64,000 bases of DNA from sequence record PP925840.1; one strand, written 5' to 3'. The notes beneath the pieces were generated by a model, which had not been told where the DNA came from, made no database searches, and worked only from the letters and a program-made list of their open reading frames with translations. The position numbers and the translations under genes are program-made. This stretch comes from Escherichia phage SholemSchwarzbard. Shown here piece by piece: positions 43,251 through 44,669 of the stretch. How positions within the stretch are numbered: position 1 is the first letter of the stretch; every line of letters begins with the position of its first letter.

Positions 43251-44669
43251 TTATGGATAGGTATAGATGATACCAGTTTCTAAAGCAGTTTTATGAATGA
43301 TGTATCCATTACGTGATTCTTGAACATCAACTTCTGGATAGTCTTTCATCATCTTCTGAAGGGTGTAACGATGCAGGTAGTATTTACTATCTGGATCTTC
43401 AGTTTTCCAATCTTTACCTTCTTCTGTCATTTTTTGGATTTCATCCATAACCCACCAACCGCACCAGATATAAGCTGAAGTACGATGTGGAAGAGGATGA
43501 ACATAAGGCAATTCACCTTCTGGTTCTGGAGCAACTTTATCAGTTACCTGAACTTGACCTTCTGCTGTGATAGTTTTGCTATCATAATCAGTGGCAGTAA
43601 CAGTTGCAGTAACTTCAATAGTTTGACTTCCGATAGATGATGTATCAACGGTGTATACATTAGTTGATTCTTCTACAGGAGAAGAATCTTTCTTCCATGA
43701 ATATTCGATTTGTGCTTCTTCTGGAGCATCAGTGACATTAGCCGTAAATGTAGCCGAAGCATCTTGCTGAACGTTAATAGAAGGAGGAGTCAATGTAACT
43801 TGTGGATTCATTGTCTTCTTATTAACTGTCAATGATACTTCATTAGAAGTAACTTCCTTTTCATTGTAATTTTCTGCCGTTACTTGCGCTACGCATTTAA
43901 TTCTTTTTACTCCACTTGTAGTTGGAGTATAGTTAAATGTAGAGTTAGTTTCTCCACCAACTTGTGAATCATCTACATACCATTTATATGTAGCAGACGC
44001 TCCAACAGGTTGAGAAACCAAGGCAGCAGTAAATTGAACTGGGGTTCCAATTACTCCAGCTGAAGGACTATCAGGAGTTACTGCTAAGGTAGTTGTCTGC
44101 GTCTTTTTATTAACAGTCAGTGACACTTCATTGGAAGTAACTTCCTTTGTATCATAATCTGTCGCGATTACTTGAGCTACACACTTAATTGTTTTAACTC
44201 CGCTTGTGTCAGGAGTGTAATTGAATGTAGCGTCAGTTGCTTCGCTTACAGGAGAACCGTCAACGTGCCATTGATACGTAGCAGATGCACCTGGCGGCTG
44301 TGAATCTAAGGCAGCGGTAAATTGAACGGCTGTTCCGATTACTCCCTCCGGAGGACTAGCAGGAGTTACGGCTAATGTAGTTGTCTGTGTTTTATTTTGA
44401 ACCGTGATAGTTGTAGTAGTTTCTGCTGTTTCAGGTTCAGATTCTGCAACTTGATTGGTTGCAACTACTTTAATAGTTTTTTGACCGGCAGGTCCTTTTA
44501 GTACATAACTAAAAGTTGCTGACGTTTCTTCCTGCGGAGCGTCGTCTACAGTCCAAGCATATGTAATAGGTCCATCTCCAGTTTCACCACTGGGTGTAGC
44601 AGTAAACTGCTGAGTCTGATCTATAACTCCAGTAGGTGTTTTAGGAGTTATATCAACTGTAAAAGCCAT
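43251..44669 (-). CDS. hoc: Hoc highly immunogenic outer capsid protein (472 aa) with an extra Ig-like domain
   Basis: N-terminus MAFTVDITPKTPTGVID..., C-terminal WCGWWVMDEIQ capsid-binding region; recalled T4 Hoc is 376 aa; contains a tandem repeat of about 96 aa. Confidence 0.9.
   Translation of the reverse strand: MAFTVDITPKTPTGVIDQTQQFTATPSGETGDGPITYAWTVDDAPQEETSATFSYVLKGPAGQKTIKVVATNQVAESEPETAETTTTITVQNKTQTTTLAVTPASPPEGVIGTAVQFTAALDSQPPGASATYQWHVDGSPVSEATDATFNYTPDTSGVKTIKCVAQVIATDYDTKEVTSNEVSLTVNKKTQTTTLAVTPDSPSAGVIGTPVQFTAALVSQPVGASATYKWYVDDSQVGGETNSTFNYTPTTSGVKRIKCVAQVTAENYNEKEVTSNEVSLTVNKKTMNPQVTLTPPSINVQQDASATFTANVTDAPEEAQIEYSWKKDSSPVEESTNVYTVDTSSIGSQTIEVTATVTATDYDSKTITAEGQVQVTDKVAPEPEGELPYVHPLPHRTSAYIWCGWWVMDEIQKMTEEGKDWKTEDPDSKYYLHRYTLQKMMKDYPEVDVQESRNGYIIHKTALETGIIYTYP
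43812..44387 (-). repeat. tandem duplication of an Ig-like domain coding unit within hoc (2 x 288 bp)
   Basis: Residues 95-190 and 191-286 are near-identical (QTTTLAVTP...SNEVSLTVNKKT twice); DNA units 44100-44387 and 43812-44099 are clearly homologous. Confidence 0.8.

Follow-up and report, generated by a model that had tools for sequence, protein, structure and literature searches.

We analysed a window of 64,000 nucleotides from Escherichia phage SholemSchwarzbard (PP925840.1), in which the coding sequence of hoc, the gene for the highly immunogenic outer capsid protein, lies on the minus strand at 43251-44669 and, in the list of open reading frames, consists of 472 codons followed by a stop codon (43251-43253). 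The product matched PHROG 1149, "Hoc-like head decoration", with an E-value of 2e-141, and its C-terminal domain was matched by both PHROG 21694 and PHROG 1149. A PDB search with the protein returned the T4 Hoc chains (5vf3_Z, 8t1x and others; E 2.8e-210), and outside of one gap the alignment with T4 Hoc showed 88% identity. The gene order of the window, rnlB-24.2-24.3-hoc-inh-uvsW, is also that of T4, with hoc placed between 24.3 and inh in the head-gene region of both phages. As such, based on the PHROG 1149 match, the T4 Hoc structures, the T4 alignment and the T4 gene order, the gene is assigned with little doubt as the hoc of a Tequatrovirus (T4-type) phage. A comparison across 24 kb showed about 98% identity between the window and the Tequatrovirus phages PinkRuby, ECP2301, vB-Eco-KMB23 and IsaacDaniel. 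Directly 3' of the hoc stop codon, a consensus scan placed a terminator-like GC-rich hairpin on the minus strand at 43227-43246; the equivalent site in phage GiZh is annotated as a rho-independent terminator. No open reading frame of at least 60 aa was listed on the opposite strand within hoc, and the consensus scan found no enrichment of sigma-70-like sites within the gene.

A tandem duplication of one Ig-like domain had been predicted at 43812-44387, and two repeat searches and the alignment of the units agreed with this on both place and register. Tandem Repeats Finder reported a repeat at 43813-44387 with a period of 288, 2.0 copies, 77% matches and a score of 691, and the second search returned two head-to-tail copies of 288 nt with 76% identity. 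Repeat unit A (Ig-like domain 2a; 44100-44387, minus strand) encodes residues 95-190 and is without a T4 counterpart, and repeat unit B (Ig-like domain 2b; 43812-44099, minus strand) encodes residues 191-286 and is the orthologue of T4 domain 2. The two units are equal in length (96 codons, a multiple of three) and in frame, and they are identical at 74 of 96 residues (77%) and at 220 of 288 bases (76%). The remaining 22 residues and 68 bases differ, the bases being distributed 14/13/41 over codon positions 1/2/3. As a null model, hoc was shuffled by codon 200 times and the best in-frame 288-nt self-match was taken from each shuffle. The shuffled self-matches averaged 117 ± 2.8 with a maximum of 126, compared with 220 observed (z about 37), and the repeat is far beyond chance. 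The 288-bp coding units are thus homologous yet diverged, as the original prediction had stated; its description of the protein units as near-identical did not hold, given their 77% amino-acid identity and a dS of about 1.07. The length of about 376 aa given there for T4 Hoc was correct, and the 472-aa protein of the window aligns with it through a single clean gap of 96 residues.

On either side of the repeat, the arm contains Ig-like domain 1 (D1; 44388-44669, minus strand, residues 1-94) and Ig-like domain 3 (D3; 43542-43811, minus strand, residues 287-376), the latter being the orthologue of T4 domain 3 by alignment. [quoted passage not shown] 2023 (PMC10385173). With an alignment of 41 Hoc sequences as the input, AlphaFold2 produced four beta-sandwich blocks with strands at residues 3-91 (D1), 99-187, 194-283 and 290-376 (D3), and pLDDT was about 90 over residues 1-376, D1 included. 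The model of the C-terminal domain was poor (pLDDT 27-53), and the inter-domain geometry was likewise unreliable. The repeat units begin and end in the linkers that separate these strand blocks (borders at residues 95, 191 and 287), so that in the model each unit corresponds precisely to a single Ig-like domain of PKD type, bounded by linkers on both sides. The top matches of a Foldseek search against the PDB were four-Ig arrays, namely Dscam1 Ig1-4 (E 2e-13), Sidekick Ig1-4 and ICAM-5 D1-D4, and RB49 Hoc (3shs) was matched as well (E 3.4e-10). The four predicted beta-sandwiches and the four-Ig arrays among the fold matches agree with the earlier claim that this Hoc has one Ig-like domain more than that of T4.

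In Pfam, the PKD family (PF00801) scored 32.3 bits for the whole protein against a cut-off of 23.5, in two stretches with the best at residues 195-267, and BiPBP_C was also above its cut-off. Ig_2, Ig_3 and I-set, which are classical Ig families, all remained below their cut-offs on the window Hoc; the Ig_3 and I-set stretches, at residues 289-373, lie in domain 3. When the modules were aligned with each other, D1 shared 39 of 99 and 36 of 98 residues with the two D2 units, and the pairwise alignments of D1 and D3 contained 25-39 identical residues. D1 and D3 are older paralogues of the same module, and the whole arm is therefore a product of serial duplication in which A and B are the youngest pair.

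To place the duplication relative to T4, we used Nei-Gojobori estimates of dS and dN/dS. Unit B was taken as the orthologue of T4 domain 2 because its dS from T4 D2 was 0.25 (dN/dS 0.32), in comparison to 0.89 for unit A (dN/dS 0.15). Unit B is identical to T4 D2 at 257 of 288 nt, and the T4 protein alignment also puts D2 at this position. For the other domains, comparison of the window with T4 gave dS of 0.43 for D1, 0.49 for D3 and 0.24 for the C-terminal domain, with dN/dS of 0.28, 0.23 and 0.04, respectively. Between units A and B, dS was 1.07 and dN was 0.139, with dN/dS of 0.13. The dS between the copies is 2-4 times that of the orthologous comparisons with T4 (0.24-0.49), and by this measure the split between A and B is older than that between the window phage and T4, with synonymous sites near saturation. 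A recent duplication with near-identical copies was ruled out by the dS of about 1.07 and the 76% nucleotide identity, and also by the 30 two-unit protein clusters described below, in which the units within one protein shared 54-82 of 96 residues (median 76); homogenised or young duplicate units were absent from these 30 clusters.

The differences between the copies are not evenly spread. Of the 51 loop positions 18 carry an amino-acid substitution, compared with 4 of the 45 in strands (Fisher p = 0.003), with a concentration at residues 137-147 and 169-174, and dN/dS was 0.05 in strands and 0.17 in loops. The window hoc is free of any frameshift or premature stop, and these rates indicate that both copies are kept by purifying selection. 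We also looked for positive selection between the copies as a dN/dS above 1 in the variable loops, and found no support for it, as the maximum was 0.49, in a 6-codon loop, and no segment exceeded 0.5.

To see how common this architecture is, hoc was compared by megablast with 50,697 phage records, of which 680 matched, 596 of them over 80% or more of the query length. Rather than counting all of them, we sampled systematically along the megablast ranking, which gave 50 full-length hoc matches from Tequatrovirus records: 17 were two-unit genes of 1418-1425 nt that matched in one colinear piece, and 33 had the T4 form of about 1131 nt, which matched in two overlapping pieces. Extrapolated from this sample, the two-unit form would be present in about one third of the records, on the order of 200 public genomes. 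In a census of the 120 best protein clusters at 90% identity, Hoc lengths fell into classes of about 376 aa (81 clusters), about 472 aa (30) and 567-570 aa (9), and the longest class has three units, as in phages UGKSEcP1 and UGKSEcP2. As such, the two-unit Hoc is a common and old allele class and not an unusual one. Carriers of the two-unit form include wV7, slur and BASEL phages, and the hoc match in wV7 (HM997020) spans 1425 nt. The exact protein of the window was not on record in a collection of 15 billion proteins; the closest gene on record is the hoc of IsaacDaniel, with 98.0% nucleotide identity. On a wider scale, 1.84 billion representative proteins were searched with the capsid-binding domain as the query, and homologues were found in 136 clusters at 50% identity, with N-terminal arms of about 0-15 units; arms of two units were the commonest (43 clusters), and arms of four were present in eight.

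The units themselves were compared through nearest-neighbour and class-mean identities only; on this basis the nearest relative of the first unit was the first unit of another multi-unit Hoc in 29 of 30 two-unit clusters, and that of the second unit was a second or third unit in all 30. In single-unit genes, the closest type was that of a first unit for 49 and that of a second or third unit for 31, and the sites that tell A from B show a mosaic of both. In the case of GiZh, whose Hoc has 376 aa and whose D1 is identical to that of the window at 279 of 282 nt, the single unit shows A-type states over about 250 nt and then B-type ones at the last six informative sites, without private changes. 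Such a hybrid is what a single unequal crossover between units of the A and B types would be expected to produce. Phage ADUt shares 98.0% identity with the window across 24 kb, yet its hoc carries one unit, in which the types follow a B-A-B pattern, and the T4 unit is mostly B-type with A-type patches. The two three-unit genes that we examined both begin with an A-like unit and carry two B-type units in opposite order. Short stretches at the domain ends resemble each other (TTITVQNKT and VSLTVNKKT), and both precede QTTT. T4-type phages recombine heavily. Because of the mosaic and hybrid units, as in GiZh, and the difference in copy number on genomes of about 98% identity, as with ADUt, the comparisons point to repeated rounds of unequal homologous recombination that keep the 288-nt register and take place either inside one genome or between phages in a co-infection, the single events being ones that we infer.

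Taken all together, it is highly probable that the window carries a two-unit allelic form of hoc, in which old A and B copies have both been kept and unit number varies by unequal recombination. The encoded Hoc would project four rather than three Ig-like domains, with domain 2 present as the tandem paralogues A and B. Both paralogues are likely to be folded, working parts of the fibre, because they are old, with near-saturated synonymous sites, yet under purifying selection. Across the genus, one, two or three D2-type units are present; unequal crossing-over between homologous units, in steps of 288 nt, would change their number and would also shuffle A-type and B-type segments.

The direction of the change can be read in more than one way. 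The two-unit gene may be the older form in Tequatrovirus, so that the 376-aa Hoc of T4 would be a derived deletion and the window gene no extension. The dS between A and B, several times larger than the orthologous divergence of the window from T4, is consistent with this. In addition, single-unit genes occur as A-type, B-type and A-to-B hybrids, which is what reciprocal losses or unequal crossovers from a two-unit parent predict, and the unit of GiZh is an exact A/B hybrid. However, the unit tree is unrootable because the units are mosaic through recombination, the distant relatives of Hoc most often have arms of two or three units, and the same pattern would result if A and B had first diverged as alleles. 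We regard this order of events as a substantial possibility without leaning towards it, and the three-Ig form of T4 is as likely to be a derived loss as the form in the window is to be a gain.

In the allelic version of the history, A and B would have diverged as alternative single-D2 alleles in separate lineages and would have come together only afterwards, through a single crossover, unequal or illegitimate, between co-infecting phages; the duplication would thus have been diverged from its birth. A-like and B-like single-unit genes both exist today, the similar domain ends could mediate mispairing in phages known for heavy recombination, and the three-unit genes, with their differing unit orders, resemble further joinings. 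While these points speak for a joining of alleles, an ancient duplication followed by losses fits the present data equally well, and the positional orthology across the 30 two-unit clusters suggests few origins. We hold this history only tentatively.

It is also conceivable that the extra domain is invisible to selection and that unit number simply drifts by recombination. T4 Hoc is dispensable for laboratory growth (PMC10385173), and one, two and three units coexist, even on genomes of about 98% identity. However, a useless domain should decay, whereas the two copies show a dN/dS of 0.13 (0.05 in strands) after synonymous saturation, and long Hoc arms are widely retained at a cost to the genome, both in our search of 136 clusters and in the published comparison (PMC10385173). 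Neutral drift of the length seems unlikely to us. Nevertheless, the fitness difference between the forms may be small or niche-specific, since Hoc is dispensable in the laboratory and one- and two-unit forms coexist on near-identical genomes.

A more far-reaching proposal, which we consider improbable, is that the D2 array is a recombination-driven contingency locus, with anciently diverged A and B haplotypes under balancing or niche-specific selection for different ligands. If that were true, fast switching among one, two and three units and among A/B mosaics would tune the length, valency and specificity of the capsid adhesin to the mucosal or bacterial surface on which the phage lives. Finally, tandem repeats can be mis-assembled, but the chance that the second unit is a mis-assembled expansion of a single D2 unit is negligible, because an assembler cannot generate the in-frame, selected divergence of these copies (68 of 288 bases or 24%, 22 of 96 residues, dN/dS 0.13), and the A-then-B gene is present as a colinear 1419-nt gene in many independent genomes, such as IsaacDaniel (A 284/288, B 287/288), in line with the original prediction of a real duplication.

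Returning to the preferred reading of a two-unit allele with both copies kept, its functional side can be considered from what is known of T4. T4 Hoc is a monomeric fibre of about 180 Å. Its C-terminal domain anchors it in the middle of the gp23* hexamers, one monomer per hexamer and 155 copies per capsid, and D2 and D3 attach to E. coli surfaces (PMC10385173). Based on its near-identical C-terminal domain, the window Hoc should bind the centre of each major-capsid-protein hexamer in the same way. The extra domain would lengthen the fibre by one Ig module and add a second D2 surface, including a second S-L-T motif, and two non-identical D2 surfaces might increase the reach or avidity of weak, reversible binding to mucin glycans or the bacterial surface. 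Fucose mediates the binding of Hoc from T4-like phages to the mucin MUC2. In the four-domain Hoc of PNJ-6, the residues that matter most for this are E29 and G33 in D1; in that of PNJ-9, a three-domain variant, they are S183, L184 and T185 in D2 (PMC11853027). The window Hoc carries E29 and G33 in D1, and S-L-T at 183-185 is repeated at 279-281. However, the SLT residues are conserved in PNJ-6 as well and make no key MUC2 contacts there (PMC11853027), and therefore the argument from the doubled SLT is weak. A longer adhesive fibre of higher valency is a plausible prediction.

Little depends on the window gene alone. Its sequence is new, with 98% identity to one already deposited, and it is an ordinary member of a common, old allele class; the variable number of Ig-like domains in Hoc is already published, and two-unit sequences have been public for years. 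Our literature search found no paper on D2 duplication, on D2 copy-number polymorphism or on the 472-aa form within Tequatrovirus, and PMC10580926 proved not to concern domain number. The broader point is that, in the architecture of its Hoc, T4 does not represent the genus to which it belongs. This has a bearing on studies of mucus adherence and on Hoc-based scaffolds for phage display and vaccines. Natural alleles with one, two or three units, carried by near-identical genomes, also constitute a ready series for relating fibre length and valency to adhesion to mucus and cells.

Compared with T4 Hoc (NP_049793, 376 aa; PDB 5vf3, 8t1x), the window has the same gene at the same locus, and differs from it in the extra D2-type unit A (residues 95-190), which is placed in frame between D1 and the T4-type D2 and gives four instead of three Ig-like domains. 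The 472-aa two-unit Hocs of IsaacDaniel (MW749000), of the Escherichia phages Ge15, PinkRuby and slur02, and of wV7 are identical to that of the window in architecture and unit order, and the two-unit genes differ from it by point differences only, with nucleotide identities of 98.0% for IsaacDaniel (Hafnia phage vB_HpaM_IsaacDaniel) and 90-96% for dozens more. The 568-aa three-unit Hoc, found in Escherichia phage UGKSEcP1 (OV877085) and on a metagenome contig, shares with the window the frame of D1, D3 and C-terminal domain as well as the 96-residue D2-type unit, but has one unit more; its first unit is A-like, and the order of the B-type units differs between the two genes examined. In a different genus, Klebsiella phage PMBT63 has a mucin-binding Hoc-like protein of 468 aa with four Ig-like domains and about 46% identity to T4 Hoc, and its extra domain is not presented as a recent tandem duplicate of D2 (Microbiol Spectr 2026, PMC13435897). 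Across the wider family, which includes RB49 Hoc (3shs) and PNJ-9 Hoc, a conserved capsid-binding domain is joined to a variable string of Ig-like domains, as in the window Hoc. Fokine et al. 2023 found that such strings are kept in 650 Hoc homologues, and the number ranges from only one or two domains in some of them to ten in the Hoc of Serratia phage Muldoon (PMC10385173). While these published comparisons span distant phages, the number of domains described here differs between phages that are very closely related, and does so through copies of a single domain.

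Both of the three-unit hoc genes that we compared, each encoding 568 aa (L005:1501-3207 and L006:1501-3207 in the comparison loci), begin with an A-like unit, and the two B-type units that follow it are in reversed order between the genes. When unit 2 of the UGKSEcP1 gene was compared with the other units, the nearest was unit 3 of YOKO (259/288). These patterns suggest that the three-unit genes expanded independently or were reshuffled. A 567-aa Hoc from the protein database (P0088), with 53% identity to that of the window, carries one unit closely resembling window unit A, followed by two D2-type units that are far more diverged. 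Other lineages therefore hold D2-type expansions of differing ages.

The 32-kb public record MG010123.1 is labelled 'Staphylococcus phage SAJK-IND', but it has the same two-unit hoc as the Tequatrovirus window, to which it is 97.8% identical across 24 kb; the record has probably been mislabelled or derives from a contaminant. In MZ501066 (FriedrichMiescher), KX130861, LC465543, OR887633, MZ234018 and OP168898, the two-unit hoc departs by one nucleotide from the 1419-nt span, measuring 1418 or 1420 nt, and some of these genes are annotated in two pieces ('Hoc part 1 / part 2'). The off-length spans, together with the two-part annotation, point to frameshifts: either these arose in sequencing or the hoc genes are genuine pseudogenes.

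Gene 24.3 (42945-43160, minus strand), a member of the Pfam DUF2774/PHROG 1566 family of unknown function, encodes 71 aa in the window and in the one-unit phage ADUt, whereas it is annotated as 56 aa in T4 and is 67 aa in GiZh, another one-unit phage, and IsaacDaniel. In the T4 RefSeq record, which bears a note on sequence discrepancies, uvsW is annotated as a single gene of 587 aa. The window has a uvsW ORF of 503 aa (45410-46921, plus strand) and, after it, a distinct ORF of 80 aa (46935-47177, plus strand); the 503-aa length was also found when the ORFs of ADUt, GiZh and the three-unit loci were compared. The inh-uvsW spacer of the window (45360-45409) is only 50 nt long, in contrast with T4, where the GIY-YIG homing endonuclease gene segE occupies this site, and with the close relative IsaacDaniel, where a homing endonuclease gene likewise lies between inh and uvsW (regions compared, L001:4058-4675 and L004:3659-4276). 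In the locus comparison, ADUt, GiZh and UGKSEcP1 lack such a gene at this site, as does the window. The spacer contains an exact match to the T4 late-promoter core, TATAAATA (45373-45380, plus strand), with the start codon of uvsW lying 30 nt downstream. Upstream of hoc and of inh, a minus-strand scan within 43000-45500 found no exact core.

In four of the database Hoc clusters (P0230, P0248, P0249 and P0256), the capsid-binding domain is N-terminal and is followed by 90-170 residues. This reversed arrangement is shared with Hoc of phage PG7, for which it was noted by Fokine et al. (PMC10385173).
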